From an uncultured Methylococcaceae bacterium (lineage in GTDB: Bacteria > Pseudomonadota > Gammaproteobacteria > Methylococcales > UBA1147), in assembly GCA_964528035.1 (NCBI GenBank), contig CAZGQY010000026.1:1-31287 (forward strand): a DNA stretch of 31,287 nt, in the 5' to 3' direction. Of this stretch, positions 1 to 25,724 are shown piece by piece. Every line of letters begins with the position of its first letter. Position 1 is the stretch's first letter. The notes under the pieces are model-generated. The model did not search any database. It was not told where the DNA came from and saw only the letters and a list, made by a program, of their open reading frames with translations. A program made the translations under genes and the position numbers.

Positions 1-20
1 AGGCCGCAAATTTTCTTGCT

Positions 21-524
21 TTGGGTATCATCATCCAATCGTCAATTCGCTGGGTCGAAACGGAGAGCTGGGATGGACTGGTGTCCGTCATTTTCGTATT
101 CATTGCTTCACAGGTATTATTGCTCTGTGTAACACGTCTACGCGCCCGAATCTATATGCGGCGTCACCAGGGCCAAAGACTTCAGGATGTATTAAAAGAA
201 GGGAATCCAGCACTCGCAATCCGCTATGCCGGTCACATTATTGCAGCGGCTCTTGGAATTAGTGCGGCCGCACACCTGATTGCATACATGCCCGAGACCC
301 CATGGATTTCAGCAATTATCTGGTTAGTCGTTTCCGTGACTATTGCTGGCTTGATTACTCTGCTTTCCATGATCGCCCGTTGCATTATTCTCAAAGGCAT
401 CGATACAGTTGAGGAAGTGGATAACCAGAAAAATATAGGCGTTGCCTTTATTGAAGCTGAAATTTTTATTTCCATCGCAATAATTTTAAATCCAATAATG
501 ACCATGCTGGATTCTATTATCTAA
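21..524 (+). CDS. DUF350 (YjfL-like) small inner-membrane protein. The reading frame is open to the window edge, so the 5' end may be partial.
   Basis: The 167-aa ORF has two hydrophobic repeats with the DUF350-like pattern N-x-A-x-A-I/L...G-x-x-I-A-x-A, seen as 'EGNPALAIRYAGHIIAAALGISAAAH' and 'NQKNIGVAFIEAEIFISIAI'. It starts with TTG and there is no stop between position 3 and 21. It is followed by the other yjf-type cluster genes. Confidence 0.55.
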   Translation: MGIIIQSSIRWVETESWDGLVSVIFVFIASQVLLLCVTRLRARIYMRRHQGQRLQDVLKEGNPALAIRYAGHIIAAALGISAAAHLIAYMPETPWISAIIWLVVSVTIAGLITLLSMIARCIILKGIDTVEEVDNQKNIGVAFIEAEIFISIAIILNPIMTMLDSII

Positions 525-543
525 ATACACCGGGCGTAACATA

Positions 544-2262
544 ATGCACGCGTCGGCTGAAACTCGACGACCACGGATTACTCTACAGCACGATATCGTC
601 TTAATTGGCAGCATGATGGTATTGGCTGCGTGTGGCCTGATTTATGAATACCTGCTGGCCCATTACGCCGGTCGAATAATCGGTGCCATGGAAAGCAGCA
701 TATACGGGATGATCGGTATCATGATCGTTGCCATGGGTGTCGGTGCCTTTCTTGCGAAACTGATCAAAGACCCCTACACCGGGTTTGCCTGGCTCGAAGT
801 CTGTATCGGCTTTCTTGGCGGGTCTTCCATACTGATCATGGCAGGTGTAATCTGGTTAACCTACAGTTTACCGCAATGGCTGCAACAGGTATACGGTGTA
901 CACCCCTCCATGAGCATGGACGGTGGCTATATTGCGATTCTGCAGGAAGCCTCATTTGTAATGCCTTTTGTTATCGGATTTATTTTAGGTGTCATGATCG
1001 GCATGGAAATCCCTCTCATCGCCCGAATCAGAGAACATATACACGGCAAACACATCGTACATAATACCGGTACGATTTATGGTGCCGATTATATTGGAGC
1101 AGGGATCGGCGCTGCGATCTGGGTTATTGTCTGCCTAAAGTTGCCCATTATGGTCGCGGCAATTGGTACTGCAGCAATCAATGCGCTTGTCGGACTGATT
1201 TTTCTATTTCGCTATCAATCGGAACTAAAATCAAAACACAAACTGTGGTTTGCACATGCCATGCTGATAAGCGCTTTAATACTGTTATCCGTCATGGGAA
1301 TTCGATTTACCCAGGATATGAATTCAACCTTATTCAAGGATAAAGTAATTTACACTAAGATCACTGCCTATCAACACATCACGTTGACCGAACGTCGCAG
1401 TGGTAAAGGCTTAGCCACAGTAGTCAGTTTGTATATTAACGGTCGTTTACAATTCTCCAGCAATGATGAAGCTATATACCATAGTCTTCTGACTTACCCG
1501 CCGATGCTGGCTTCTGCCCGGCATGACCATATTCTGGTGATTGGTGGCGGTGATGGGCTGGCCGTCAGGGATATTTTGCAATGGCAGCCAAAATCTATCA
1601 CTGTCATCGACCTTGATCAATCAATGATTGAGCTTTTTTCCGGAAATGACCTGGAGTCACAAAAATACCTGCGTAAGATACTTTTAAAGCTCAACAAACA
1701 ATCGTTCCTTGATCATCGAGTCAAAATAATCATTGGTGATGCTTTCATCGAAGTGGAAAAACTGGTCAGTTCCAGGAATCATTACGATACTATTATCGTT
1801 GATCTTCCCGATCCAAGTCACCCGGATCTGAACAAACTTTATTCCGGTTTTTTTTATTCGCGCCTGAAAGAACTGTTGTCGGGTGACGGCGCGATTGCTG
1901 TTCAGTCTACATCGCCCTATCACGCAAAAAAAGCATTTATCTCAATCGGCAAAACTTTGACCGACGCTGGCTTCAATACCCAACAGTACCACACCAATGT
2001 ACCAAGCTTCGGCGAATGGGGCTGGAGCATAGGAACTAAACGAGGGAAAAATGCCTTACAACGTATCAGGGAAACGGACACCCTTCCTGTTAGTGACCCA
2101 TGGATCTCGAAAGCTCAGTTAGAAGCCGCTTTCGTCTTTGCACCGTCGTTTTACAGAAATCCGAAAAATGTCGGTGTAAACCACCTTGGCAGTCATCTGA
2201 TCTACCATTATCACCATGATGCCTGGGAAAACGAAAATGGCATATACTTCACATATAAATAA
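544..2262 (+). CDS. Membrane-anchored spermidine-synthase-like polyamine aminopropyltransferase. An N-terminal multi-TM domain of about 230 aa is fused to a C-terminal SpeE-like domain.
   Basis: The 572-aa product has a C-terminal half with SpeE/aminopropyltransferase motifs: 'HILVIGGGDGLAVRDILQW', 'VIDLDQSMIELF', 'IIIGDAFIEVE' and 'DTIIVDLPDP'. The N-terminal half is strongly hydrophobic with several predicted TM helices. Confidence 0.75.
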   Translation: MHASAETRRPRITLQHDIVLIGSMMVLAACGLIYEYLLAHYAGRIIGAMESSIYGMIGIMIVAMGVGAFLAKLIKDPYTGFAWLEVCIGFLGGSSILIMAGVIWLTYSLPQWLQQVYGVHPSMSMDGGYIAILQEASFVMPFVIGFILGVMIGMEIPLIARIREHIHGKHIVHNTGTIYGADYIGAGIGAAIWVIVCLKLPIMVAAIGTAAINALVGLIFLFRYQSELKSKHKLWFAHAMLISALILLSVMGIRFTQDMNSTLFKDKVIYTKITAYQHITLTERRSGKGLATVVSLYINGRLQFSSNDEAIYHSLLTYPPMLASARHDHILVIGGGDGLAVRDILQWQPKSITVIDLDQSMIELFSGNDLESQKYLRKILLKLNKQSFLDHRVKIIIGDAFIEVEKLVSSRNHYDTIIVDLPDPSHPDLNKLYSGFFYSRLKELLSGDGAIAVQSTSPYHAKKAFISIGKTLTDAGFNTQQYHTNVPSFGEWGWSIGTKRGKNALQRIRETDTLPVSDPWISKAQLEAAFVFAPSFYRNPKNVGVNHLGSHLIYHYHHDAWENENGIYFTYK

Positions 2263-2269
2263 ATATTTA

Positions 2270-2298
2270 TTGACATTTGCCATAATATGGCTTTTAAT
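2270..2298 (+). promoter_or_regulatory. Candidate sigma-70 promoter for the yjfI-like/PspA-like genes, with TTGACA, a 17-bp spacer and TTTAAT.
   Basis: TTGACA lies at 2270-2275, followed by a 17-nt spacer and TTTAAT at 2293-2298. This is about 50 bp upstream of the 2347 start, which has an AGGAG RBS. Confidence 0.3.
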
Positions 2299-2346
2299 TG
2301 ATCACCAGATTGTTGAAACCAGTCTGATTACCTTAGGAGCAATTGA

Positions 2347-2754
2347 ATGAACTATACACTTGAAGAGCTGGCTCACGGCCTGAATACAACGACGACAGAG
2401 GAAGGTACGAATTTCGATGCCGTCATCACGGAAATCGGCGTAATTGAGGTAAGCTGCTCTAATAACGAGGAGTTTCCCATTCATCTTGCCATGACTGAAA
2501 CGCAGCTTCTTTCAGTCACGCCGCTGTTTAATATCAGTGAAGTGCTAGAGGGCAAAGTGGATCAGTTAAACAATTTATTGTTGCAGTTGAGTCCTGCTGT
2601 GCCACTCAGTTCAATCGGTCTGCAGGATGGTAATTATATTCTGTTTGGCGCGATGGCACTCAACACGATATTCGAAAATATCGTTCACGAGCTGGAAGTC
2701 CAGGCTGAAAATACGGTCGACGTTCTTGAAGCAATTGAGCCATTATTGAATTAA
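2347..2754 (+). CDS. YjfI-like DUF2170 protein.
   Basis: The 135-aa acidic protein has a strong AGGAG RBS and a sequence pattern close to E. coli YjfI: 'EEFPIHLA..TQLL', 'YILFGAMALNT...IVHELEV...NTVDVLEAIEPL'. It sits immediately upstream of a PspA-family gene, as in the yjfIJ arrangement. Confidence 0.75.
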   Translation: MNYTLEELAHGLNTTTTEEGTNFDAVITEIGVIEVSCSNNEEFPIHLAMTETQLLSVTPLFNISEVLEGKVDQLNNLLLQLSPAVPLSSIGLQDGNYILFGAMALNTIFENIVHELEVQAENTVDVLEAIEPLLN

Positions 2755-2814
2755 ACGTAACTATTCAACACATCAAATTTGTAGGGTAGTTATAATCAAA
2801 CGAGGATTAACATT

Positions 2815-3507
2815 ATGAGTATATTGAGAGACATGTTTTCAGCCTTTAAAGGCGCGGGTAACGAAGTGGGTGAGGCTATTATCGATGCCAATGCAGTGCG
2901 TATCCTGGAACAGGAAATTCGCGAAGCCGACGAGGCTATTCATAAATCCAAACAAAGCCTGACTAAACTGAAAGGTACGGAAATTCGCCTCAAACGCGAA
3001 ATCAATTCCTTAGAAGTTGATATTCAAGATTATGAAGCTAAAGCAGTTCAGGCATTGAATGAAAACAAGGAAGAAATTGCCGTTAAAGTCGCCGACCGAA
3101 TTGCAGAAATTGAGTCAGATCGGGACGAAAAAGCCGCTGAACATGCAAAACTGGCCGCTGACGTTGAATCCCTTAACAAAATGATCAAGAATCGCAACAA
3201 AATTATCCAGAAGAACAAGCGGGAACTGGAAAAAGTTCGTACTATAAAGGAGCTACAAAAGACAACTTCCACGATTAGTTCGAATTTCGCTGCCAGCAGT
3301 TCAAATGCACACCGCGTATCTAAAGCACTGGATCGGGTAAAAACCAAACAGGCGAAATGGAAGGACGATATGGAAGCAGGCGACTGGATGGCCAGCCAGG
3401 AAAATGTCGATGATCTCGACAAAGAACTCGAGGCCGCCGGCATTGGCAACAACCCGGGTAAAAGCAACAGCGTTCTCGAACGTCTGAAAGCCAGACAGAA
3501 TGCGTGA
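2815..3507 (+). CDS. PspA/IM30 (ESCRT-III-like) family protein, YjfJ-like.
   Basis: The 230-aa product has long charged heptad-like coiled-coil sequence typical of the PspA/IM30 family: 'AVRILEQEIREADEAIHKSKQSLTKLKGTEIRLKREINSLEVDIQDYEAKA'. It has a GAGG-type RBS. The context is yjfI-like upstream and DUF2491-like downstream. Confidence 0.85.
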   Translation: MSILRDMFSAFKGAGNEVGEAIIDANAVRILEQEIREADEAIHKSKQSLTKLKGTEIRLKREINSLEVDIQDYEAKAVQALNENKEEIAVKVADRIAEIESDRDEKAAEHAKLAADVESLNKMIKNRNKIIQKNKRELEKVRTIKELQKTTSTISSNFAASSSNAHRVSKALDRVKTKQAKWKDDMEAGDWMASQENVDDLDKELEAAGIGNNPGKSNSVLERLKARQNA

Positions 3508-3539
3508 GATCTTGTTGAAATTTCTTAGAGTGGAGCAGC

Positions 3540-4175
3540 ATGGGACTATTTGGTAAAAATAAGCAAAAGGGTCGGCGCTCATTGACAACGCCGGGAGAGT
3601 TACTTGCCGGGGATATCGTCGTTTTAAAAGAACGACGATCCCTGCCCGGTGAGTTACAGGGCCAACAACTGGAAGTGACTCAGGTAGGAACCTATCAATA
3701 CCCGGGGAGCGTCAAAAAAGAATTAACTTTGCGCTCTGTGGATAATCGTATTTATTATCTAGCCATCAATGATGACAATGACGCACCGTCTTTGAATTTC
3801 TCGATAAAAATCCCAAGAAAGATTGTTTTGTCGATTTTTGATGAAGAACAGTTTGCACAACTATGGGACCCTGAATTTACAACCCTACAGGTAGCTGACA
3901 GGCTGAATGAATATACAGACTGGTTGTCCGATGACTATAAACAGGAAGTCATCGAAGGAGAAGGCTACTACTATGATCGCGATTGCAGCGGCGATCCACC
4001 ATCGGAATATCAGGATGATGACGGTGAAGAATTCCGCTGGCATGAATGCACCTCCATGCTTGATAATAACTACTCACTGTCGGTTGAAATATGGGAAGAT
4101 GGTGATACAGAAGTATTCCTGGAATTAATAACACCCGCTGATGTCATCGCAGAAATGTGGCCACATGGCAACTGA
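3540..4175 (+). CDS. YjfK-like (DUF2491-type) protein. The assignment is tentative.
   Basis: The 211-aa product has a basic N-terminus and a very acidic C-terminal half. The call rests on position directly after the PspA-like gene, as in E. coli yjfK. Homology cannot be verified without a search. Confidence 0.5.
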   Translation: MGLFGKNKQKGRRSLTTPGELLAGDIVVLKERRSLPGELQGQQLEVTQVGTYQYPGSVKKELTLRSVDNRIYYLAINDDNDAPSLNFSIKIPRKIVLSIFDEEQFAQLWDPEFTTLQVADRLNEYTDWLSDDYKQEVIEGEGYYYDRDCSGDPPSEYQDDDGEEFRWHECTSMLDNNYSLSVEIWEDGDTEVFLELITPADVIAEMWPHGN

Positions 4176-4485
4176 TAAGTGGGAAAAAGAAAAGCATGCA
4201 CTAAAAAAAGTGCAGATTCATTTCGCATTTCAGCAGGAAATCATCGCATCAATTCGTCACGATGCCGCAGATGATAATATTAATCCCAGCGATATTGTCC
4301 GCAAAATTGTCGGCTTACCCTATACAAAAATTCAGCGCGCCAGAATCGGTCTATCCTTTAATGAACATGATTTGAACTACCTGTCGAATCGCTATAGTCT
4401 TGAAGAAGTCGATGAAAAAGAAATCAAACGCAGAGTCATGGAAGAAATCAATTTGCATTATCATAAGCAGAATCGGAATGGCTAA
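4141..4485 (+). CDS. Hypothetical small protein of 106-114 aa.
   Basis: The ORF begins with ATG at 4141, overlapping the previous gene by 35 nt. An internal ATG at 4165 ('MATDKWEKEK...') is an alternative start. The product is charged with no recognisable motif. The ORF fills the gap before the channel gene. Confidence 0.35.
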   Translation: MSSQKCGHMATDKWEKEKHALKKVQIHFAFQQEIIASIRHDAADDNINPSDIVRKIVGLPYTKIQRARIGLSFNEHDLNYLSNRYSLEEVDEKEIKRRVMEEINLHYHKQNRNG

Positions 4486-4491
4486 CCGAAA

Positions 4492-5592
4492 ATGAGCCCC
4501 GGCTATTTTATTCATGCACAGTGGAAACGCCGACTGTATTTCAAGTATACACGGCATTACGAAAAACGCTTCCTGATTCGTCTAGCTAAAGTATTCGCGC
4601 TGCTTTTGATGCTGATAATGGCTCATACCGGGGGCATGATGGTCCTGGAAAAAATGTCTTTCAGCGATGCCTTGTGGCTGTCAATCACTACCGTAACAAC
4701 CGTCGGTTATGGTGATTTTTCTGCTGCAACATGGCAAGGACGACTGGTAACAACATTATTACTCTATGTATTTGCTATCTCATTGCTGGCACAACTTGCC
4801 GCAGAATTTTTCGATTACCGCCTGCTAATCCGTGAAAGAAAGGTAAGAGGCCACTGGAGATGGAAAGATATGAAAGACCATCTGTTAATTATCAATACAC
4901 CGAATGATCACACCGAAATATATCTTAAACGACTGCTCAAACAGGTCAGGAAAACACCACTAATTGAAGAACTCCCGGTGCAAATACTGACACGAAAATA
5001 TGATTCAGGACTCCCTGGCTCGTTATCTAACCTGGGTGCTGTACACTTTAGCGGTGTCGCAGAAAACAACGAAAACCTGAAAACTGTCAATGTCGATACC
5101 GCAAAATTCATTATCATTATCGCCAGAGATCCGGGTGATCCCACATGCGACAGCCTGAGCTTTGATGTATTAGACAGAATTCATGAAATCGGCACCAAAG
5201 CCTTAATTGTTGCCGAGGTCTCTCAGGATAATAACCGGGAACGCATCAAAAAAGCCGGAGCGGATGTCATTCTTCGACCGATCCGGGCTTACCCGGAATT
5301 ACTGGTTCGTTCATTGGTTGCCCCGGGAACTGAGCAAGTTATGGAAAATCTCTTCACCCATGATTCGGATCATATGGTGCGTATCGATTTAAGCTTTAAG
5401 AATAAAATCTGGTCAGATATCGTCTGCAGTTTTGTTACCGGTGATATAGGACTGCCGATCGCCTATGTTGGCGACCAGGGGGTGAATGTCAACCCATTAC
5501 CCGGCGTAGCCTGTAGCGGAACTGCGGTCATTGTTCTCATCAATGAATGTCAGCAGGTTTCGATGGAAAAAGCTAAAAAATACCTTGGATAA
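4492..5592 (+). CDS. Two-TM potassium channel with a C-terminal RCK/TrkA-N domain, MthK/Kch-like.
   Basis: The K+ selectivity filter 'TTVGYGDFS' lies between two hydrophobic helices. The C-terminal region is Rossmann-like ('HLLIINTPNDH...KFIIIIARD...ALIVAEV'). Confidence 0.85.
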   Translation: MSPGYFIHAQWKRRLYFKYTRHYEKRFLIRLAKVFALLLMLIMAHTGGMMVLEKMSFSDALWLSITTVTTVGYGDFSAATWQGRLVTTLLLYVFAISLLAQLAAEFFDYRLLIRERKVRGHWRWKDMKDHLLIINTPNDHTEIYLKRLLKQVRKTPLIEELPVQILTRKYDSGLPGSLSNLGAVHFSGVAENNENLKTVNVDTAKFIIIIARDPGDPTCDSLSFDVLDRIHEIGTKALIVAEVSQDNNRERIKKAGADVILRPIRAYPELLVRSLVAPGTEQVMENLFTHDSDHMVRIDLSFKNKIWSDIVCSFVTGDIGLPIAYVGDQGVNVNPLPGVACSGTAVIVLINECQQVSMEKAKKYLG

Positions 5593-5847: not shown

Positions 5848-6387
5848 ATGAAAATACCTCATGCCGCCTATCTGCTGGCAATAATGTGGATCGTACAATT
5901 CGTTCAATCGGTGTTGTGGATAGATCTAGGAAGCTATGGAATACTGCCAAGAGACTTTCACGGTTCATTGGGTATTTTGTTGGCTCCCTGGATTCATCAC
6001 GGCTGGTGGCATCTGATAAACAACTCTGTACCGTTTCTAATTTTGGGAACGCTGATTCAATCTAAAAATACCGTCATTTTCTGGGAAGCAACCCTGTTTA
6101 TTACCCTGATTGCCGGTGCAGGTACCTGGCTTTTCGGCTCGACCGCCTACCATGCCGGTGCCAGCGGACTTGTTTTGGGATACTGGGCATTTCTTATCGC
6201 CGACGCCTGGTTTCAGAAATCGATCAAAGCCATTTTAATTGTATCCATTGCGCTAATATTTTACGGCGGTTTCTTCTTTATTTTGTTCGATGTACGCCCA
6301 CATATTTCATGGATCGGCCATACATCAGGAATAGTGGCCGGAATTATCGTTGCGAAGTTGTATGCGAATTCCTGTACGAAAGGATAA
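5848..6387 (+). CDS. Rhomboid-family intramembrane serine protease.
   Basis: The 179-aa polytopic membrane protein has the catalytic motif 'GASGLVLG' (GxSG) and a downstream His in 'WIGHTSGIVAG'. 'WWHL' and 'HHGWWHL' are typical rhomboid helix-2 features. Confidence 0.8.
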   Translation: MKIPHAAYLLAIMWIVQFVQSVLWIDLGSYGILPRDFHGSLGILLAPWIHHGWWHLINNSVPFLILGTLIQSKNTVIFWEATLFITLIAGAGTWLFGSTAYHAGASGLVLGYWAFLIADAWFQKSIKAILIVSIALIFYGGFFFILFDVRPHISWIGHTSGIVAGIIVAKLYANSCTKG

Positions 6388-6868: not shown

Positions 6869-7597
6869 TCAAGCCTTGGGCCGCATAGGAATCAACATGG
6901 ATACCTTGCTCTTATAATCCTTATACAAATCCCCATGCGCGGCGATAAGATCTTTTTCTTCCAAGAAAATTCCCACCAGTATATAACCTGTCGCACCCAG
7001 TGCAAATAATAGGTGTCCTCCCGTCATAACTGGTGCCGACCAAAACGCCAGAATGAAGCCCAGATAAATCGGGTGACGTACATAATTATAGAGATAAGGT
7101 GTTCTAAAACTCAGATCTGGCAATTCCCCACCACGCCAATGTGCATAAACCTGATTCAGACCAAACAATTCGAAATGATTGATCATAAAGGTACTCGCCA
7201 GCACGATTAGCCAGCCGAATACAAATAATAACCAAAAAAGACTGCCGACAATAGAATCGGAAAAATCCCAGATAACTCCACCAATCGGACGCCAACTGGC
7301 GAACATCAGTATCAATGCCAGACTGGCGAGCAATACATAGGTACTACGTTCAATTTCTTTAGGAACGAATACAGTCCACTTTTGTTTAAACTCCTGGCGA
7401 GCCATTACACTGTGCTGTACTGCGAAAACTCCCAATAACAGTGTATTCACGACCAGAGCAAGTAATACAGAACCGTGCTCGCCACTATCAATCGATTTCG
7501 GCACCCATAAATTGCCAGTAAATCCCGCAGCATAAAGAAATGTGCAGAAGAAAATCAAATAGCACACCATGCCATAAACAAACAATACCTGCCTCAT
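6869..7597 (-). CDS. Isoprenylcysteine carboxyl methyltransferase (ICMT)/phospholipid methyltransferase-family membrane methyltransferase, NnrU/MddA-like.
   Basis: The 242-aa polytopic membrane protein has the family signature 'RHPIYLGFILAFW' and the C-terminal 'EEKDLIAAHGDLYKDYKSKV'. Confidence 0.75.
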   Translation of the reverse strand: MRQVLFVYGMVCYLIFFCTFLYAAGFTGNLWVPKSIDSGEHGSVLLALVVNTLLLGVFAVQHSVMARQEFKQKWTVFVPKEIERSTYVLLASLALILMFASWRPIGGVIWDFSDSIVGSLFWLLFVFGWLIVLASTFMINHFELFGLNQVYAHWRGGELPDLSFRTPYLYNYVRHPIYLGFILAFWSAPVMTGGHLLFALGATGYILVGIFLEEKDLIAAHGDLYKDYKSKVSMLIPMRPKA

Positions 7598-7861: not shown

Positions 7862-9043
7862 TCATGTTTCAGCAGGCGTTGATGGAATCCGAACCATATC
7901 ATTCATAACACCATCCAAACCACTGTATACATTCAGTGTTTTGATTTGCGAAGTGATTTTTTCAAGTACTTCCAACTCTTTCAATCTCAATAAAGTCGGG
8001 TTACCCTCCATTACTTTTGCGGTATTGTGCAAAGACCGTGTGGCCTGAGTTTCTTCACGACGTCTGATCAAGTTGGCTTCAGCTTTCTTTTCCGCTTCTA
8101 CCACCTGAGCCAGAATTGTCTTCATTTCGCCAGGCAAAACAATATCTCTTGCGCCCACGGTTTTCAACTCAATACCATATTCGGACACCTTACTGAAAAC
8201 GATTTCCAGAATTTGCTGGTTCAATTTATTTTTATCGGCCAACAATTCATCCAGTGTCTGAGTCGAGACAATACTGCGTAACGCCAACTGTAATTCTCGG
8301 TACAGATAATCAGTATGATCCGCCAACTCGTCAGACACGCGTTTTGCATCACTGACCTGCCAGGTGGCAGACAAATTGACACGCAAACCCACACGGTCTT
8401 TGGTTAAAATTTCCTGCCCATTCACTTCCATATTCTGCAACCTGCAATCGATCTGTTTAATCTTTAAGTTCCGATTAAACTTCCACCAGGCATGAATTCC
8501 TGCCTTTAGTTCAGCATCCTGCTCACCATCCACTGACAAAAAACCCAGATGACGTTCAGGAATTGTAGAAGTCGTCACAGCGTTGACAGCAGAATCTCTT
8601 AACAAGGGTTGTTTCGCTGCCAGCAAAACTCTCGCCAATGTCTTATCCAGTTTAAATTCTTTTGAAATATCGATTTTTCGAATTTCAATTTCTCCAAACC
8701 CTTTCCAGTAAGCACCGCGCTGGGCCGGTGCTTTAATTTCTTTAAGCACGTCATCCTGATAGATTAAACCCACTTCATGCTCATTGGTTTCCCAGGACAG
8801 TAAGTGTTCAGACATTTTTCCAGAATGAAGTTTTAAAACATTCATTACCTGGGTGTTTACACCTGTTTCCAAAGTACCTGTAATATTAACCAGTAAAATT
8901 CTGTAGCGATTTTTCCAGTCTGTCATTTTATGAACGCCTGGCATCAATACTTTAAGAAACTGTTCGTCTTTGAACAACAACGCACGATGTGTTTCAGCGA
9001 CGGTCACTTTTTTAACAAAAAACATTTTGTTCTCCTCATACAA
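7862..9043 (-). CDS. SPFH/band-7 (stomatin/slipin-like) domain protein.
   Basis: The 393-aa product has a central SPFH-like region ('VGLRVNLSATWQVSDAKRV...LYRELQLALRSIVSTQTLDELLADKNKLNQQILE...YGIELKTVGARDIVLPGEMK'). It is followed by a coiled-coil 'AQVVEAEKKAEANLIRRREETQ'. Confidence 0.75.
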   Translation of the reverse strand: MYEENKMFFVKKVTVAETHRALLFKDEQFLKVLMPGVHKMTDWKNRYRILLVNITGTLETGVNTQVMNVLKLHSGKMSEHLLSWETNEHEVGLIYQDDVLKEIKAPAQRGAYWKGFGEIEIRKIDISKEFKLDKTLARVLLAAKQPLLRDSAVNAVTTSTIPERHLGFLSVDGEQDAELKAGIHAWWKFNRNLKIKQIDCRLQNMEVNGQEILTKDRVGLRVNLSATWQVSDAKRVSDELADHTDYLYRELQLALRSIVSTQTLDELLADKNKLNQQILEIVFSKVSEYGIELKTVGARDIVLPGEMKTILAQVVEAEKKAEANLIRRREETQATRSLHNTAKVMEGNPTLLRLKELEVLEKITSQIKTLNVYSGLDGVMNDMVRIPSTPAET

Positions 9044-18711: not shown

Positions 18712-21546
18712 ATGCACGCCGCACCCGAGCCATCACCACAGACCACTGCAAAACAATTGATCGAGTCTATACGTGGTGTCGCTTTAGAGCTTAAATTGCG
18801 CCCAGAACAAATCGAATCTATAGATCTGGATACCACACTGGATACCGAGCTCGGGCTGGACAGCCTGACTCGCGCGGAATTTATCAGTCGAATTGGGCAA
18901 AAATTCGAACTGACATTTCCTCAGCAGGTATTTACAACAGTTTCCACTCCGAGAGAATTACTGAGAGAGGTATTGGCGGCACAATCAATCGATCACAACG
19001 CACCAATAGCCAAAGTTGACAGCCTGGTACTCGATAAAGTTGATCCATCTCCCGCCACCGCCCAAACCCTGCTTGATATCCTCGACTGGCACGTGCAGAC
19101 CCACCCTGAACGCCCACATATTCAAATCTACGAAGCAGGTGAAAGCACTGCAACCATTAGCTACCAACAACTAAAGCGGGAAGCGACCCGGATCGCTGCC
19201 GGATTGCAGGCTAAAGGCCTAAACCCCAAACAGGCGGTCGCAATAATGCTGCCAACCTGTAAAGAATATTTCTACACCTTTTTTGGCATTTTAATCGCTG
19301 GCGGCATCCCCGTTCCGATTTACCCTCCTGCCCGGCTTAATCAGGTCGAAGATCACTTACTACGTCATAAAAACGTTCTATCCAACTGTAGCGCTGTAAT
19401 GCTAATCACGGTCGATGAAGCAATACACGTCGCACGCCTGGTAAAACCCCATGTTCGAAGCCTGCATAGCATCGTTACACCTGAAGAAATTTGCGCCGAT
19501 CCTGCATCTGTTTTATATCCCAATATTTCATCAGCCGATATCGCCTTCCTGCAATATACATCCGGGAGCACCGGGACTCCGAAAGGCGTCACTCTAACTC
19601 ACGCCAACCTGCTAGCCAATATAAGATCCATGGGGCAAAAACTGCAGATCGAATCCACAGATACTTTCGTAAGCTGGCTGCCTTTGTATCATGACATGGG
19701 CTTGATCGGCGCCTGGTTTGGCAATTTTTACTATTCGGCCTTGTTGGTAATCATGTCACCATTGGATTTTCTGGCAAAGCCGGATCGTTGGCTCAACATC
19801 ATCCATCAGACTAAAGCAACTTTGTCAGCAGCACCTAATTTTGCTTACGAACTGAGTATAAAGCGAAGCAGCGAAGACCAGATAAAAAACCTTGATCTGA
19901 GCAATGTTAGAGCATTGTTCAACGGCGCTGAACCTGTTAGCCCGAATACGATGGAAAAATTTGCCGATCACTTCGCCCCAACAGGTTTACGACGATCAGC
20001 CTTATATGCGGTTTATGGACTCGCCGAATGCTCCTTAGGCTTAACCTTTCCACCCTTGGCAAGAGGCCCGCTGTTTGATGTCATTAACCGGGATACCTTC
20101 ATGGAAACCGGATTCGCAAAACCGGAGGTTCAAAAATCAAACTCGCTGCGTTTTGTTTCCTGTGGAACCCCTATCCCCAACCACGAACTGCGCATTCTGG
20201 ATGACTCAGGCCGTGAATTACCCGACCGCCGCCAGGGTCGCCTGCAGTTCCGCGGGCCCTCAACAACCAGCGGTTACTACCGCAACCCTGAAAAAACACG
20301 CGAATTATTTCACGGCGAATGGTTAAATTCTGGCGACCTTGCCTATGTTGCCGATGGTGAAGTATATCTGACTGGTCGCGTAAAAGACTTAATTATCCGC
20401 GCTGGCCGAAATATATATCCACAGGAAATCGAAGAAGCTGTCAGTAATATCTCAGGGATTCGAAAAGGCTGCGTCGCGGTGTTCGGTAGCAGTCATTCAG
20501 AATCCGGTACCGAAAAACTCATTGTGCTTGCAGAAACCCGCATTACCGATAGCGAAGAAAAGAATCGCTTAGGGTTACAGATCAACCAGGTCGCAACAAA
20601 ACTGATTGGAGGTGCGCCGGATGAAGTCTTATTGGTACGCCCCCATACAGTATTAAAAACTTCCAGTGGAAAAATCAGGCGTAGCGGATGTCGCGATCTG
20701 TTTGAAAAAAACCTGCTTGAGAAAGGCCCTGCATCACCCTGGATACAATTCTCCCGATTACTTATTACCGCAGGCCTGTCTCAAATAAATAGAATCAGAG
20801 ACATCGCTTTCGACTCAGCCTATGCGATCTATTCATGGATAATCTTTAGCTTCATTACCATCATATCCTGGCCTGTCGTAGTATGCTGCCCGAGCCTTCT
20901 ATGGCGATTGAAATTTATTCGCGCGGCGATTAGAACCCTTGCACGATTAACTGGAACAAAAATTACCCTCCAGGGAACCGAAAATTTACCCTCAACAAAC
21001 ACAACCAACATTTTTGTCAGTAACCACTGCAGTTATCTTGACGCTGCTGTACTCTTCCTAGCATTGCCATTACCCTTTAGTTTCGTAGCAAAAAACGATC
21101 TGTTAAAACAATTTTTTGCAACAACCTTCCTACGTCGAATAGGTACCGAATTCGTCGCAAGATACCAGCAACAGCAAGGCATCACCGATTCAGAAAATGT
21201 GACTGCTGCCGTCAATAATGGAAAATCAATCCTGGTGTTTCCTGAAGGCACATTCACTCGTATGCCAGGATTACTACCCTTTTACATGGGTGCTTTCAAA
21301 ACAGCAGCGGAAACCGACACGCCGATCATACCCGTAATAATCCACGGTACACGTTCAATTTTAAGATCGGACACATGGTTTCCTCGTAAAGGTGCTGTAA
21401 CAATCAGCATTTTACCCAAAGTAGAATCACTTGATCGCAGCAATTCCAGAGAAGTTTCAAGCAATTGGGAGCATGCCCAGGATCTGAAAGACACCACGCG
21501 AAAATTAATGCTGAAACACCTGAGAGAACCTGACCTTTGTGAATAA
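18712..21546 (+). CDS. Tri-domain fusion of an acyl-carrier-protein domain, a fatty-acyl-AMP ligase (AMP-binding) domain and a lysophospholipid acyltransferase (PlsC/LPLAT) domain, with a TM segment between the last two.
   Basis: The 944-aa product has an N-terminal ACP motif 'LGLDSLTRAEF'. Adenylation motifs are 'YTSGSTGTPKGV', 'GRVKDLIIRAGRNIYPQEIE' and 'KTSSGKIRR'. A hydrophobic stretch 'YSWIIFSFITIISWPVVV' follows. The acyltransferase motifs are 'NHCSYLD' (HX4D) and 'FPEGTFT'. Confidence 0.8.
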   Translation: MHAAPEPSPQTTAKQLIESIRGVALELKLRPEQIESIDLDTTLDTELGLDSLTRAEFISRIGQKFELTFPQQVFTTVSTPRELLREVLAAQSIDHNAPIAKVDSLVLDKVDPSPATAQTLLDILDWHVQTHPERPHIQIYEAGESTATISYQQLKREATRIAAGLQAKGLNPKQAVAIMLPTCKEYFYTFFGILIAGGIPVPIYPPARLNQVEDHLLRHKNVLSNCSAVMLITVDEAIHVARLVKPHVRSLHSIVTPEEICADPASVLYPNISSADIAFLQYTSGSTGTPKGVTLTHANLLANIRSMGQKLQIESTDTFVSWLPLYHDMGLIGAWFGNFYYSALLVIMSPLDFLAKPDRWLNIIHQTKATLSAAPNFAYELSIKRSSEDQIKNLDLSNVRALFNGAEPVSPNTMEKFADHFAPTGLRRSALYAVYGLAECSLGLTFPPLARGPLFDVINRDTFMETGFAKPEVQKSNSLRFVSCGTPIPNHELRILDDSGRELPDRRQGRLQFRGPSTTSGYYRNPEKTRELFHGEWLNSGDLAYVADGEVYLTGRVKDLIIRAGRNIYPQEIEEAVSNISGIRKGCVAVFGSSHSESGTEKLIVLAETRITDSEEKNRLGLQINQVATKLIGGAPDEVLLVRPHTVLKTSSGKIRRSGCRDLFEKNLLEKGPASPWIQFSRLLITAGLSQINRIRDIAFDSAYAIYSWIIFSFITIISWPVVVCCPSLLWRLKFIRAAIRTLARLTGTKITLQGTENLPSTNTTNIFVSNHCSYLDAAVLFLALPLPFSFVAKNDLLKQFFATTFLRRIGTEFVARYQQQQGITDSENVTAAVNNGKSILVFPEGTFTRMPGLLPFYMGAFKTAAETDTPIIPVIIHGTRSILRSDTWFPRKGAVTISILPKVESLDRSNSREVSSNWEHAQDLKDTTRKLMLKHLREPDLCE

Positions 21547-21835
21547 TAAGAGTACTATGTAATGAGAACCCTTATGCGCAATCTACAAGCTGTCGTTCAG
21601 GCGCGACAGGACAGCGCATTGCTAATCGCCGTTTTGTTGAGGATCAGCTAATTTTCGTCGCTCACTCCCGACAAAGACGCCCGGATATTATTCATCAACA
21701 ATCAAGACAAACTTATCAAGCAGTTTGTTATTTAAAGAAATAGAAAAAGCGGCTCGTTTTTTGCATTTTCGCCTGGATTGATAACTCGAAAAACAAAACG
21801 CTCCCTGTCGTTAAAAATAATAAGGACAATCCATA

Positions 21836-24481
21836 ATGTGGAAAAAATTTTTTCGCCTGCTGATACTTTTACTCGTTATCGCCGCCAATTACGCAGTGTG
21901 GACGCAGTTAAACAAACCACGTCATGCGCCAACCTGGGAAAACACCATGATGGGGGTATCTTTTAATCCTCATAGACGCGACCAGGATCCGGAAAAAGGT
22001 CAATACCCGACAGAACAACAAATTGAAGACGATTTACGCCTGTTATCCGGAAAAACCCATGCGGTGCGTATCTACAGTGTTACTCATGGACTGGAGATGG
22101 TACCCGAGCTGGCTGCTCAACACGATATAAACGTGACTGCGGGTGCATGGATCGCCAGAGATGAAACCGCCAACGAAATCGAAATCGAAAACCTGATAGC
22201 GCTGAGTAAAAAACATAACAACATCGTACGCACTATTGTCGGCAACGAAGCAATATTGCGCAAAGACGTTTCAGTCGAACAGATGATCGCTTATCTCAAG
22301 CAAGTCAAAAGCCGCGTTTGGCGACCTGTCAGTACATCAGAACCCTGGCACACATGGATTGAACACCCAGAACTCGCTAAAGAAGTTGATTATATTGCGG
22401 CTCATATTCTGCCCTATTGGGAAGGCATTCCCATTGACCAGGCAGTGGACTATGCCTTCGAACGCTACAATCTGCTTCGTGAAGCCTTTCCGGACAAGCC
22501 CATCGTCATTACCGAGGCAGGTTGGCCTTCTGGTGGGCAACCCTTTAAGCAATCTGAACCGTCGTTGATCAATCAGGCTCAGTTTTTAAGAAATTTTCTT
22601 AATCGCACCCAGCAGGAAAACATCACTTATTACATTGTAGAAGCATTTGACCAACCCTGGAAAATGTCTATGGAAGGCTCGTCGGGCGCATATTGGGGCC
22701 TGTTTGATATCAACAGGAAAGCAAAGTTTCCGATGCGGGACGATGTTTTAGCACTACCAAACTGGAAAGACTGGGCAATAGTTGCCGGCATAGTGGGTGC
22801 GCTACTCATGGCTCTCTTCCTGATCAAGAAGCACCGTTTGCGCCCTCAGGGCAAACTTTTATTCGCCATAGTGGCCAATATCGCTGCCTCCGCTGTCGCA
22901 TGGACAGCCTCGGTGGGAATCCTTCAATATCACACAACCTTAAGCAGTGTAATGTGGGGAGTTCTGCTATTGATGCAAGCATTAGCAATTGTGGTGCTTC
23001 TTGTCGAAACCCTTGAAATTTGCGAAGTTTTATGGCACAGAAAAGGAAAACGCACATTCACCGCACTCAGCCCTCCCGATAATTTCGATTTCCCTAAGGT
23101 TTCATTACACCTACCCATACATAATGAGCCCCCGGAAATGGTTAAGGAAACTTTGTCAGCGCTTGCTCAACTGGACTATCCAAACTTCGAAGTACTGGTA
23201 TTGGACAATAACACAACTGACGATAACATCTGGAAACCCGTTGAAGAATTCTGCACCACCCTGGGTAATAAATTTCGTTTTTTTCATCTGGAAAACTGGC
23301 CGGGATTTAAAGCCGGTGCTCTAAACTACGGACTCACCCAGACTGCTGATGATGCAGAAGTGATTGCAGTCATCGACAGTGACTACATTGTCAGTCCAAA
23401 CTGGCTAAAACAATTGGTACCCTATTTTGAGGATTCTGGCGTAGGTTTTGTACAAGCCCCCCAGGATTACAGGGATAGCAAGGAAAACCTGTTCAAATCA
23501 TTTTGTCATTGGGAATACGCCGGTTTCTTTAAACTGGGCATGGTGCAGCGCAATGAATTCAACGCGATCATACAGCATGGAACCATGACTATGATCAGAA
23601 AAACAGCACTGGAAAAAGTAGGTAAGTGGGGCGAATGGTGCATTTGTGAAGATAGCGAACTCGGCATACGCCTGTATCGACACGGGTATGACTCGGTCTA
23701 TGTTAAAGATTCGTTTGGCCAGGGCGTCACACCCGACAATTTAGCCAGCTACCGGACTCAAAGATTTCGTTGGGTCTACGGTGCGGTGCAAATTATGAAG
23801 GGTCATTGGCGCGCATTTCTACCCGGCAAAAAATCCGGATTAACACCGGCTCAACGATATTATTTCATCGCCGGGTGGGTTCCGTGGTTTTCTGATGCAC
23901 TGGCGTTATTGTTCACCCTTGGCAGCCTTGCGCTTTCGGCGCATATTCTCACTGAACCCTCGCGCGGAGAACTACCGGTCATGGCCTTCGTGCTACCAAC
24001 GATTGGTTTATTCTGTTTTAAGATTTTACGTTCATTCCTGCTGTACCAGGCACGCGTAAAATGCACTCTTGGACAAACTCTGGCTGCGATGATCGCGGGA
24101 CTTGCACTTACACATACCGTGGCAAAAGGCGTATGGATTGGATTGTTTACGTCCGGACGTCCTTTTCTACGCACCCCTAAATGCGAAAAAACCAGCCCTA
24201 TCCTTGCTGGAATCCTAACCATCAGACAGGAAATTATTTTATTGATTCTGCTGGTCGCAGCCGCATATTCGATCGGCTCTTTAGAATATTTCAATAATAC
24301 CACCGGTAAAATATGGACCACAGTTCTACTGGTTCAGGCCATTCCTTATGGTGCAACAGTACTGACATTATTCGTGAATATTGCAGGCAGTTTAGATACA
24401 CAGTCTGTAATGGAACCACAAGCGGATTCTGGAGAAAAAACCATCAAATCCGCAGAAAATCTTGAAAAAATTGTACGTTAA
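21836..24481 (+). CDS. Bifunctional GH17 beta-1,3-glucanosyltransferase / GT2 processive beta-glucan synthase, NdvB-like.
   Basis: The 881-aa product has an N-terminal signal anchor and a GH17-like region ('IVGNEAILR', 'ITEAGWPSGG'). Several TM helices follow. A GT2 domain carries 'VLVLDNNTTDD', 'VIDSDY', 'QAPQDY' and the processive-synthase motif 'QRFRWVYG'. Further TM helices lie at the C-terminus. Confidence 0.8.
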   Translation: MWKKFFRLLILLLVIAANYAVWTQLNKPRHAPTWENTMMGVSFNPHRRDQDPEKGQYPTEQQIEDDLRLLSGKTHAVRIYSVTHGLEMVPELAAQHDINVTAGAWIARDETANEIEIENLIALSKKHNNIVRTIVGNEAILRKDVSVEQMIAYLKQVKSRVWRPVSTSEPWHTWIEHPELAKEVDYIAAHILPYWEGIPIDQAVDYAFERYNLLREAFPDKPIVITEAGWPSGGQPFKQSEPSLINQAQFLRNFLNRTQQENITYYIVEAFDQPWKMSMEGSSGAYWGLFDINRKAKFPMRDDVLALPNWKDWAIVAGIVGALLMALFLIKKHRLRPQGKLLFAIVANIAASAVAWTASVGILQYHTTLSSVMWGVLLLMQALAIVVLLVETLEICEVLWHRKGKRTFTALSPPDNFDFPKVSLHLPIHNEPPEMVKETLSALAQLDYPNFEVLVLDNNTTDDNIWKPVEEFCTTLGNKFRFFHLENWPGFKAGALNYGLTQTADDAEVIAVIDSDYIVSPNWLKQLVPYFEDSGVGFVQAPQDYRDSKENLFKSFCHWEYAGFFKLGMVQRNEFNAIIQHGTMTMIRKTALEKVGKWGEWCICEDSELGIRLYRHGYDSVYVKDSFGQGVTPDNLASYRTQRFRWVYGAVQIMKGHWRAFLPGKKSGLTPAQRYYFIAGWVPWFSDALALLFTLGSLALSAHILTEPSRGELPVMAFVLPTIGLFCFKILRSFLLYQARVKCTLGQTLAAMIAGLALTHTVAKGVWIGLFTSGRPFLRTPKCEKTSPILAGILTIRQEIILLILLVAAAYSIGSLEYFNNTTGKIWTTVLLVQAIPYGATVLTLFVNIAGSLDTQSVMEPQADSGEKTIKSAENLEKIVR

Positions 24482-24524
24482 GTCTGACTAATTTCGACGC
24501 AAGTGAATAATCACCCGATAATGC

Positions 24525-25724
24525 TTGCATTGTGAAATGAAAGCATTGACTGATTCAACGTTTGCCTATCCAAGCTCCGTTTCGAGCCGGGATTTACGCA
24601 TAGATTTTCTTCGTGGCATGGTCATGATGGTCGTAATCACCGTTCACCTTGAATTTTTTTCTTTGTTCGGGATGTTGGTCTGGGAGCGAATCGGACTGGT
24701 TTCAAGCGCCGAAGGATTCGTCGCTCTTTCAGGCCTGGTACTAGGTATCGTCTATCAGAAAAAGCTGCTTAAAGATGGATTTTGGCCCACCGCCAAAAAA
24801 TTATTAAAACGAGCATTTCTTTTGTATCGGGTAAATATTTTCGTCATACTCAGCATACCCATACTGGGTTTACTACCGTTCATAAACATTTACGAATTAA
24901 GCCATTGGTCTTTAGCAGGCAGTCCGGGCCCGGTCTACCCCTTATACCCACCAGTCTCTACAGGTTGGATCAAATTAGTCTCACAAGCACTGCTACTAAA
25001 AATAGGGCCGCACCAATTTCAGGTTATAGGGCTGTATGTTTTATTTCTTTGCTGCGCACCCTTAGCACTGTATCTAATGCACAAAAAACAAACAGCCGTT
25101 CTGCTGGCATTCAGTTGGGCTCTGTATGTCATCAACCAGATTTTTCATATACAGCTAACAAACGCCAAGTTCGACCTTGCTTTTCCTATACTGAACTGGC
25201 AACTACTATTTATAAATGGCATGGCACTGGGATTTCACCGCGAAAATATCACCCAGATCTACAAGCGAATTAATATATCCATCTTAAATATTGTCATCGG
25301 TTTTGTATGCCTGGCTTTTTTATTTCTGGCTCAGAATATGCCTCACCCAATTTTCTGGCCCTGGCCCAGCCTATCGTATATCGATCCGGAAGATTTTCGC
25401 ACACTCTACAATTATGGTTTTCAAAAAGGAGGTCTGGGATTCGGGCGGATCCTAAACAACATGGCCTTATATATTGCTGCTTATACTCTTTTGAGCCGCT
25501 ATTGGATCATTTTTGAAAAGTCACTGGGGTGGTTATTTATTCCTATCGGACAAGCTTCTTTATACGTATTCATTGTCCATGTGTATTTTGTTCTTCTGGT
25601 CGCCAATACACCACTTGCCGTGTACAACAACTTCTACCTCAACAGTTTGGTTCATGCAATAACAGTACTAGTCATCTGGCTTATGGTAAAGCGGAAGTTT
25701 TTATTTAATTTGATACCTCGTTGA
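24525..25724 (+). CDS. OpgC/acyltransferase-3 superfamily polytopic membrane protein, a putative glucan O-acyl (succinyl) transferase.
   Basis: The 399-aa product has 10 or more predicted TM helices. The N-terminal 'RDLRIDFLRGMVMMVVITVHL' matches the R-x-D-x-x-R-G...H signature of acyltransferase-3/OpgC proteins. The gene starts 44 bp after the glucan synthase gene. Confidence 0.6.
   Translation: MHCEMKALTDSTFAYPSSVSSRDLRIDFLRGMVMMVVITVHLEFFSLFGMLVWERIGLVSSAEGFVALSGLVLGIVYQKKLLKDGFWPTAKKLLKRAFLLYRVNIFVILSIPILGLLPFINIYELSHWSLAGSPGPVYPLYPPVSTGWIKLVSQALLLKIGPHQFQVIGLYVLFLCCAPLALYLMHKKQTAVLLAFSWALYVINQIFHIQLTNAKFDLAFPILNWQLLFINGMALGFHRENITQIYKRINISILNIVIGFVCLAFLFLAQNMPHPIFWPWPSLSYIDPEDFRTLYNYGFQKGGLGFGRILNNMALYIAAYTLLSRYWIIFEKSLGWLFIPIGQASLYVFIVHVYFVLLVANTPLAVYNNFYLNSLVHAITVLVIWLMVKRKFLFNLIPR

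Follow-up and report, generated by a model that had tools for sequence, protein, structure and literature searches.

Layout of the locus

The stretch of DNA analysed here, referred to as the window, comprises 31,287 nucleotides of an uncultured Methylococcaceae bacterium (Gammaproteobacteria; GenBank assembly GCA_964528035.1, contig CAZGQY010000026.1, positions 1 to 31,287 of the forward strand). It opens with an array of co-directional genes in which a membrane-fused enzyme of the spermidine synthase type stands next to a PspA/IM30 (ESCRT-III-like) protein, and this array is the subject of the present report. Coordinates are window positions throughout; the source array was read further on an identical contig, ena:ERZ27251151:k141_497088 (L001), on which a window position equals the L001 position minus 2159. 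Seven open reading frames (ORFs) had been listed in an earlier note, made from the letters of this DNA alone, as lying on one strand with short gaps. All seven were found on the + strand at the coordinates given below, spaced in array order by 19, 84, 60 and 32 bp, then by an 11-bp overlap and finally by 6 bp.

The first gene, which encodes a DUF350 (YjfL-family) protein, is truncated by the window edge. Its 3' part occupies positions 1-524 (+), where the ORF at 21-524 corresponds to the C-terminal 167 amino acids (aa) of a 301-aa protein; the full gene (L001 1778-2683) starts 381 nt before the window. The DUF350 call is upheld by Pfam on the window ORF (1e-14) and on the full-length protein (7.6e-36), which carries two DUF350 repeats, equivalent to about eight transmembrane (TM) helices. 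Two further co-directional genes of the array lie upstream of the window on L001: a class-1b S-adenosylmethionine (AdoMet) decarboxylase (AdoMetDC) and, after it, a lipoprotein of 318 aa (L001 807-1763). The decarboxylase matches its Pfam family at 1.6e-32 and the class-1b model TIGR03330 with 121 bits against a cut-off of 75.65, and the Glu-Ser-His (ESH) self-processing motif LAESHITVHTWPE is present. A lipoprotein with lipobox LLSG|C is conserved in 75 of the loci compared below, and Pfam and NCBIfam hold no Ctha_1186 model. The DUF350 gene is followed at 544-2262 (+) by the gene for a 572-aa fusion of a seven-TM (7TM) domain with a spermidine-synthase-like aminopropyltransferase (Pfam Spermine_synth 3e-32; NCBIfam PRK03612 3e-175, above cut-off).

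Beyond an 84-bp gap the array continues with a DUF2170/YjfI-family protein of 135 aa with a CesT/Tir-like chaperone fold (2347-2754, +; Pfam 1.2e-22) and a PspA/IM30 protein of the YjfJ type, 230 aa in length (2815-3507, +; Pfam PspA_IM30 2.5e-30). Both are related to their Escherichia coli counterparts, as had been proposed: hhalign gives probabilities of 97.7% for YjfI and 99.8% for YjfJ, the latter over the full length, and the DUF2170 protein weakly matches the solved BacA structure 8q8o. The next gene (gene 5; 3540-4175, +) encodes a beta-rich cytoplasmic protein of 211 aa. The earlier assignment of this protein to DUF2491 was wrong: it has no Pfam match, BLASTP against E. coli YjfK yields E = 1.2 and hhalign 0.2%. 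The protein is probably a divergent DUF4178 member: a Pseudoalteromonas ortholog scores 29.6 bits with Pfam DUF4178 (cut-off 25), and two further relatives reach E = 0.0017. Profile searches thus bear out four of the five family calls, namely DUF350, the fusion, DUF2170 and PspA.

Gene 6 (4165-4485, +) encodes a small conserved protein of 106 aa that is probably a ribbon-helix-helix (RHH) regulator, as discussed below. Six nucleotides past it starts the gene for a two-TM K+ channel of 366 aa with an RCK-like cytoplasmic domain (4492-5592, +). The channel itself is secure, with Ion_trans_2 at 7e-14 and a TTVGYGD selectivity filter. The RCK domain named in the earlier note finds weaker backing: TrkA_N reaches 17.5 bits, below its cut-off of 23.8, and NCBIfam Kch PRK10537 aligns to residues 55-278 at 3e-11. 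A loosely associated gene for a Rhomboid-family membrane protease of 179 aa (5848-6387, +; Pfam Rhomboid 7e-17) starts 255 bp past the channel gene.

Conservation across related loci

Every gene of the array was mapped onto the top 80 of at least 529 genomic loci, a set biased toward relatives of this fusion enzyme; the counts refer to evaluable loci. The enzyme family is very large, with more than 4700 matches at E below 1e-20 in one search, and in Desulfobulbales and Flavobacteriales identity to the fusion enzyme still amounts to about 58%. A core of lipoprotein, DUF350 protein and fusion enzyme is present in essentially all sampled loci, and AdoMetDC lies directly upstream of the lipoprotein gene in 48/68. 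The genes for DUF2170, PspA and DUF4178 follow the fusion gene in 69 of the 75 evaluable loci, which come from many families. As the same order recurs so widely, the arrangement is not due to chance, and the gene order described in the earlier note stands. Gene 6 was detected in 68 loci, in 43 of which the K+ channel gene is directly 3' of it. The rhomboid gene comes next after the channel gene in 21/42 loci and directly after gene 6 in three more; the stop codon of the channel gene and the start codon of the rhomboid gene overlap in some loci, and the rhomboid protein has a weak rhombosortase match (25.8 bits, cut-off 84). One Shewanella locus (L056) displays the identical order with detectable orthologs of every array gene.

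The array can be resolved into two modules that stay neighbours, since in nine loci (L038, L040, L044, L049, L053, L054, L055, L074 and L082) insertions of 1.3-9 kb split the fusion gene from the DUF2170 gene. The inserted genes are heterogeneous and unrelated, often on the opposite strand. Two Moritella loci contain the lipoprotein-DUF350-fusion-AdoMetDC core alone. On plasmid MCP49-600 of Alteromonas mediterranea (L171, 5953-12611) the order is fusion, speD, a hypothetical gene, a TelA-like gene, DUF4178, lipoprotein and DUF350; here the enzyme is 29% identical and the TelA-like 'toxic anion resistance' protein is found at the place of the DUF2170-PspA dyad. A Ralstonia solanacearum megaplasmid (L172, 5965-9178) harbours a 28%-identical 7TM-aminopropyltransferase paired with an amine oxidase, with no lipoprotein, DUF350 or PspA gene nearby, and this enzyme possibly represents a different use of the same family.

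A candidate promoter and a conserved palindrome ahead of the PspA unit

The gap that precedes the DUF2170 gene accommodates a candidate sigma-70 promoter at 2270-2298 (+), consisting of TTGACA (2270-2275) and TTTAAT (2293-2298) separated by a 17-nt spacer. The spacer encloses a perfect palindrome, GCCATAaTATGGC (2279-2291), which is a candidate operator. Its consensus, G(C/A)CATAWTATG(G/T)C, is found ahead of the DUF2170 gene in almost every locus, twice in 39 loci (mostly 31 or 34 nt apart) and once in 30, and a TTGAC element beside it recurs in most of the orthologous loci. The regions upstream of DUF2170 genes, 18 kb in all, contain the 9-mer core CATAWTATG 108 times, compared with 35 times in the remaining 1.48 Mb, which makes it about 254-fold denser in the former. 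Most of the 35 remaining matches are situated just 5' of an AdoMetDC or lipoprotein gene, and this distribution suggests a regulon common to both units. Variant palindromes are seen in Flavobacteriales and in Pleionea/Aliikangiella.

A generic promoter and terminator scan produced counts no better than those of shuffled sequences and revealed no internal terminator; it did not list the TTGACA/TTTAAT site, whose -10 element is without an A at position 2. No sigma-54 promoter element was found at either unit. A sigma-54 promoter of the kind proposed for the bac operon was considered and rejected, as the sole good match belongs to rtcB.

Gene 6 is a candidate source of the protein that acts at the palindrome. 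Among 20 orthologs the only annotated matches, all weak, are to RHH families (NikA-like 0.0027, CopG-like 0.02, Arc-like 0.0074), and an RHH factor has been described as the last gene, sometimes present, of this operon type (Ravi et al. 2024, PMC11237479). The protein is thus probably an RHH DNA-binding regulator. An internal RHH duplication was dropped, the two halves aligning at 1.3% by hhalign, and profile searches of the PDB with gene 5 and gene 6 returned nothing meaningful. The conserved palindrome is compatible with a dimeric binder, and two loci without a detectable gene 6 are also without the palindrome. From sequence, the gene-6 protein is probably the factor that recognizes it, with GCCATAATATGGC as its putative target.

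The fusion enzyme

In keeping with the earlier note, the fusion enzyme is distinct from housekeeping SpeE. It scores 118.5 with TIGR00417, whose equivalog cut-off is 249.55, it is fused to seven TM helices, its partners are the lipoprotein and DUF350, and it usually has an AdoMetDC of its own. Judged by alignment, the aminopropyltransferase catalytic motifs are intact: GGGDG at 334-338, D356/D358, D399, D420-x-x-D423-P and D308-E309/Y312-H313 are invariant in 36 sequences, and the residues for catalysis and for binding of decarboxylated AdoMet (dcAdoMet) align with those of solved spermidine synthases, Bacillus subtilis SpeE (1iy9) included.

No other part of the analysis is as surprising, or as insecure, as the predicted orientation of the catalytic domain. 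The AlphaFold2 (AF2) model (predicted local distance difference test, pLDDT, 82.8; predicted template modelling score, pTM, 0.56) places seven long helices before residue 264. Across the 36 sequences the predicted cytoplasmic loops carry on average 2.7 (N-terminus), 2.1, 3.0 and 3.4 Lys and Arg residues, 11.3 in sum, against 1.0, 0.5 and 0.6 in the predicted periplasmic loops, 2.1 in sum; in no sequence is the difference smaller than 5. An odd number of helices, combined with an N-terminus on the inside, leads to the prediction of a periplasmic catalytic domain. This domain contains no Cys in 24,528 residues (78/78 proteins), and the mature lipoprotein likewise has none in 16,990 residues, while the TM domain of the enzyme has 1.1 Cys per 100 aa and the cytoplasmic globular partners 0.4-3.0. 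Five acidic residues embedded in the membrane, D17, E35, E85, E155 and D182, are invariant in the TM domain, a feature characteristic of routes that carry cationic substrates.

The C-terminus of the lipoprotein

The lipoprotein orthologs end in Lys in 74 of 75 cases, 72 of them in Gly-Lys and two in Ser-Lys, and the one exception looks truncated. The end motif, R(-7)-[GS]-x-x-[RG]-G-K-COOH, is maintained although the 12-residue tails come in 47 different versions, with Lys otherwise making up 5% of their residues. The entropy of the last residue is 0.10 bits, compared with 2.0-3.6 bits in nine other proteins of the operon. Even in the distant Alteromonas plasmid operon the neighbouring 510-aa protein is again a lipoprotein, and it ends in ...FRNRGPSSGK.

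A counterpart is encountered next to ATP-grasp ligases of the YjfC type. The lipoproteins adjoining these ligases have similar Ser/Arg/Gly-rich tails and end in Gly-Gly in seven of eight lineages: E. coli YgiB (...TSSRSMGG) and YjfM (...SSSARGHWGG), and the neighbours in Vibrio (...SRSSWGG), Rhizobium (...RSSFSFGG), P. amygdali (...GFSTGG), Paracoccus (...GRSSFGG) and Acinetobacter (...AVSSGG), the exception being Azospirillum (...GFSGS). A Gly-Gly end is present in 116 of 120 close enterobacterial homologs. Some tails of the Gly-Lys family read ...SSRSSFGGK, that is, a DUF1190-type tail plus one Lys. Attempts to widen the DUF1190 set reached enterobacterial sequences: a homology search gave only YgiB and YjfM of this group, one metagenome scan only copies of E. 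coli ygiB, and tblastn of YjfM against plasmids only Enterobacteria. A literature search retrieved no paper tying an aminopropyltransferase to the terminal lysine of a lipoprotein, the matches all being on Lpp. The Gly-Lys and Gly-Gly termini, the periplasmic active-site prediction and the palindrome in the putative DUF2170 promoter did not turn up in the literature searched.

Relation to known systems

Ravi et al. (mSystems 2024, PMC11237479) delineated a 'second major group' of CesT/Tir-PspA operons, exemplified by Shewanella oneidensis AAN56744-AAN56747, which combine a 7TM-spermidine synthase fusion, an 8TM YjfL/DUF350 protein, a Ctha_1186 lipoprotein, DUF2170-PspA, DUF4178 and sometimes an RHH factor. 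The locus described here can be assigned to this group with high confidence: it shares the 7TM fusion, the 8TM DUF350 protein, the lipoprotein and the succession of DUF2170 and PspA, here at a 60-bp gap. It differs from the published description in the K+ channel, the rhomboid and an AdoMetDC as first gene, and the published text is also without the Gly-Lys terminus, the periplasmic prediction and the operator; a search of PMC11237479 for 'periplasm' and 'rhomboid' gave no match. The same authors proposed that PspA systems monitor polyamines or the 'aminopropylation of other substrates', with consequences for membrane structure. The conserved coupling between PspA and polyamine chemistry put forward in the earlier note therefore holds in so far as a polyamine-type enzyme is a conserved neighbour, but it had already been proposed; its description as still unexplained stands.

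The E. coli yjf cassette falls into a third group, characterized by an ATP-grasp ligase, DUF1190, DUF2491, a 4TM DUF350 protein and a K+ channel (PMC11237479). Its yjfIJKL genes are regulated together as one unit, with raised expression in strains adapted to heat. YjfC and YgiC are described, in a passage of PMC11762307 that refers to Pederick 2023, as peptide-spermidine ligases whose physiological substrate is unknown. The locus has in common with yjfIJKLMC the DUF2170-PspA dyad, DUF350, a lipoprotein with a Ser/Arg/Gly-rich tail and an enzyme of polyamine type, and with a yjf-type locus of Rhizobium a K+ channel (23% identical). It differs in its duplicated DUF350, in an enzyme that uses dcAdoMet instead of ATP and spermidine, and in a lipoprotein that ends in Gly-Lys rather than Gly-Gly. 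DUF2491, DUF1190 and the ATP-grasp ligase are all absent: neither the array nor the remainder of the window contains a gene for a glutathionylspermidine-synthetase-like ligase of the YjfC kind, and hhalign relates the lipoprotein, which has no Pfam match, to DUF1190 at 0.5% with only the lipobox aligned. The interpretation of the array as a yjf cassette with one enzyme exchanged is thereby refuted. Nor does the aminopropyltransferase simply take the slot of YjfC, as it belongs to an upstream unit with partners of its own, while a candidate promoter and operator serve the PspA module separately.

The bac operon of Pseudomonas aeruginosa is also headed by a DUF2170-PspA dyad, and BacA (DUF2170), which has a CesT-like structure (8q8o), negatively controls the operon of the PspA protein BacB (Wallart et al. 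2024, PMC10948618). It differs in having no polyamine enzyme and a proposed sigma-54 promoter, whereas a sigma-70-like promoter with a palindrome is found here. Class-1b AdoMetDC genes clustered with a membrane-fused spermidine-synthase-like protein and DUF350 were reportedly the subject of work by Li, Kurihara, Kim, Liang and Michael in 2019. The decarboxylase is said to have been active, neither the fusion nor its catalytic domain alone to have complemented an E. coli speE mutant, and the carriers to have been without spermidine; reportedly no acceptor was named.

A two-unit model

These data can be accommodated in a model of two adjoining units, to which we assign a probability of about 0.4. 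Unit 1, made up of AdoMetDC, the lipoprotein, the 8TM DUF350 protein and the 7TM-aminopropyltransferase, would constitute an envelope aminopropylation machine. The decarboxylase would supply dcAdoMet in the cytoplasm, and the fusion enzyme would join an acidic, transporter-like 7TM domain to a catalytic domain that faces the periplasm. The aminopropyl acceptor would be an amine other than putrescine, and the likeliest candidate would be the epsilon-amine of the invariant C-terminal Lys of the lipoprotein, on the outer side of the inner membrane. Diatom silaffins offer a precedent for aminopropylation of lysine at the epsilon-amine. A lysine side chain bearing an aminopropyl group would reproduce the spermidine skeleton, and the lipoprotein would acquire a tail resembling spermidine, Gly-Lys(N-epsilon-aminopropyl). 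Unit 2, consisting of DUF2170, PspA, DUF4178, the RHH-like protein and the K+ channel, would provide membrane protection on the cytoplasmic side together with ion flux. It would be transcribed from its own promoter, at which the operator is probably bound by the RHH-like protein, and would act as the response module; the two units would communicate with each other.

Gly-Lys(N-epsilon-aminopropyl) would differ essentially by one carboxylate from Gly-CO-NH-spermidine, the Gly-Gly-spermidine amide that YjfC/YgiC could make on a DUF1190 lipoprotein. Such near-equivalence of the products would account for the aminopropyltransferase/AdoMetDC pair and the ATP-grasp ligase standing in for one another beside DUF350, the lipoprotein and DUF2170-PspA. 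In an extension of the model that takes in the ligase-type operons, two unrelated enzyme systems may converge on a lipoprotein with a spermidine-like C-terminal appendage, a suggestion that we regard as rather doubtful. On the one side dcAdoMet would cross the membrane via the acidic 7TM domain of the enzyme or via DUF350, and the terminal Lys would be aminopropylated; on the other YjfC/YgiC would amidate the Gly-Gly-COOH end of YjfM/YgiB with spermidine. The polyamine-tipped lipoprotein would serve as an envelope signal or effector to which DUF2170-PspA and the K+ channel respond.

A number of points weigh against the two-unit model. The link between enzyme and tail is drawn from sequence. 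Outside the cytoplasm no enzyme that depends on dcAdoMet or AdoMet is known to us, nor any precedent for export of the donor. The positive-inside rule and Cys depletion are statistical indicators, and PspA, which is cytoplasmic, has almost no Cys either. No such lipoprotein is encoded within 6 kb of the distant fusion enzymes of Ralstonia, Burkholderia, Novosphingobium and Gemmatirosa. The Gly-Lys lipoprotein and DUF1190 are not detectably homologous, their likeness being one of tail chemistry only, and the DUF1190 sample outside Enterobacterales amounts to six loci, reached through YjfC. The E. coli ligase works in the cytoplasm and requires ATP, whereas the tail is exported. As regards regulation, gene 6 has no significant RHH match in Pfam or PDB searches, and the strict palindrome core occurs at the unit-1 promoter in 23/64 gene-6-positive and 0/6 gene-6-negative loci (p = 0.17). 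Finally, a C-terminal Lys on a lipoprotein is also a hallmark of peptidoglycan tethering, as in Lpp.

Alternative explanations

The acceptor could instead be the head group of a membrane lipid, such as phosphatidylethanolamine, or a small envelope amine. Surface charge would be altered in a manner reminiscent of MprF and lysyl-phosphatidylglycerol, PspA would respond to or protect the altered membrane, and the lipoprotein would be an accessory. A TM domain fused to the catalytic domain, the invariant acidic residues within the membrane, the conserved link to lipid-binding PspA and the occurrence of distant fusion enzymes without a lipoprotein would all fit such a role, and the 'aminopropylation of other substrates' suggested by Ravi et al. 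(PMC11237479) would cover it. We nevertheless deem it unlikely, because it leaves unexplained both the near-invariant last two residues of the lipoprotein and the Gly-Gly ends in ligase-type operons.

According to a second explanation the terminal Lys anchors the lipoprotein to peptidoglycan and the enzyme acts elsewhere. In Braun's lipoprotein Lpp, a short coiled coil with YRK at its end, L,D-transpeptidases link this Lys to peptidoglycan, and the same Lys-to-meso-diaminopimelic acid (mDAP) bond could be formed here, with the long low-complexity tail as a flexible tether. The invariant C-terminal Lys is indeed the known Lpp-type signature, and in both proteins its epsilon-amine would be the functional group; yet the two are unrelated in sequence, and the coiled coil of Lpp ends in ...YRK and not in a Ser/Arg/Gly tail with Gly-Lys. 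The Gly-Lys end, moreover, strictly co-occurs with the core of aminopropyltransferase, AdoMetDC and DUF350, the very distant operon included, and the Gly-Gly ends of the sister system adjoin a ligase that acts on peptide C-termini. Tethering as the purpose of this lysine appears distinctly unlikely.

A third explanation holds that the predicted topology is wrong. A cytoplasmic catalytic domain would produce a free polyamine of an unusual kind or act on a cytoplasmic partner at the inner side of the membrane, and PspA, DUF4178 and the channel would sense or buffer the product. Production of dcAdoMet is cytoplasmic, as are all known aminopropyltransferases, polyamines are known to block K+ channels, and the modest inter-domain confidence of the AF2 model (pTM 0.56) leaves room for this arrangement. 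The seven TM helices, the charge ratio of 11.3 to 2.1 and the Cys-free catalytic domain of all 78 proteins nonetheless argue for the opposite orientation, as do the reported failure of the fusion to complement an E. coli speE mutant and the reported lack of spermidine in carrier species, and a cytoplasmic enzyme is considered markedly improbable. An ordinary speD-speE pathway placed by chance beside an unrelated PspA module, for which an AdoMetDC and a catalytically intact aminopropyltransferase in one array and the separate promoter of the PspA module could be invoked, is very improbable indeed in view of the adjacency in 69/75 loci of many families, the score below the speE equivalog cut-off, the constant fusion to seven TM helices, the lipoprotein and DUF350 genes at its flank, the same operator at both units in at least 23 loci and the published association (PMC11237479).

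Neighbouring genes

A 242-aa membrane protein (6869-7597, -) has weak matches to NnrU and to phospholipid methyltransferases and is not conserved in the related loci. An SPFH/band-7 protein of 393 aa is encoded 2.3 kb downstream (7862-9043, -; Pfam 3e-26). Band-7 proteins are published partners of PspA; as a member of the system this gene was rejected, as no homolog is found in any of the 80 related loci, and it is probably a chance neighbour. A divergent rtcB/rtcR pair (RNA ligase and sigma-54 activator) occupies 10145-13199, with a near-consensus -24/-12 element, TGGCAAAGCTGTTGCA, upstream of rtcB (11464-11479, -). It is followed by an 842-aa ORF without a Pfam match (13378-15906, -). A run of envelope genes at 18712-25724 (+) comprises an Aas-like protein of 944 aa with carrier, AMP-binding and acyltransferase domains, a GT2 glycosyltransferase of 881 aa with a GH17-like region, and an OpgC-family protein of 399 aa.

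Biological significance

The architecture of this operon has already been published, and the locus alone adds little to it. Membrane-fused spermidine-synthase-like enzymes form a large family with no known substrate, YjfC/YgiC have a demonstrated activity, and PspA/ESCRT-III proteins are central to membrane repair. The lipoprotein termini, the prediction of an outward-facing active site and the operator make the function directly testable. If the proposed acceptor is correct, the repeated presence beside PspA of polyamine enzymes with two unrelated folds would find an explanation. Convergence of the two systems, if true, would identify the substrates of both enzyme families and represent a new bacterial protein modification, and the reaction of the fusion enzyme would be the first transfer of an AdoMet-derived group outside the cytoplasm.

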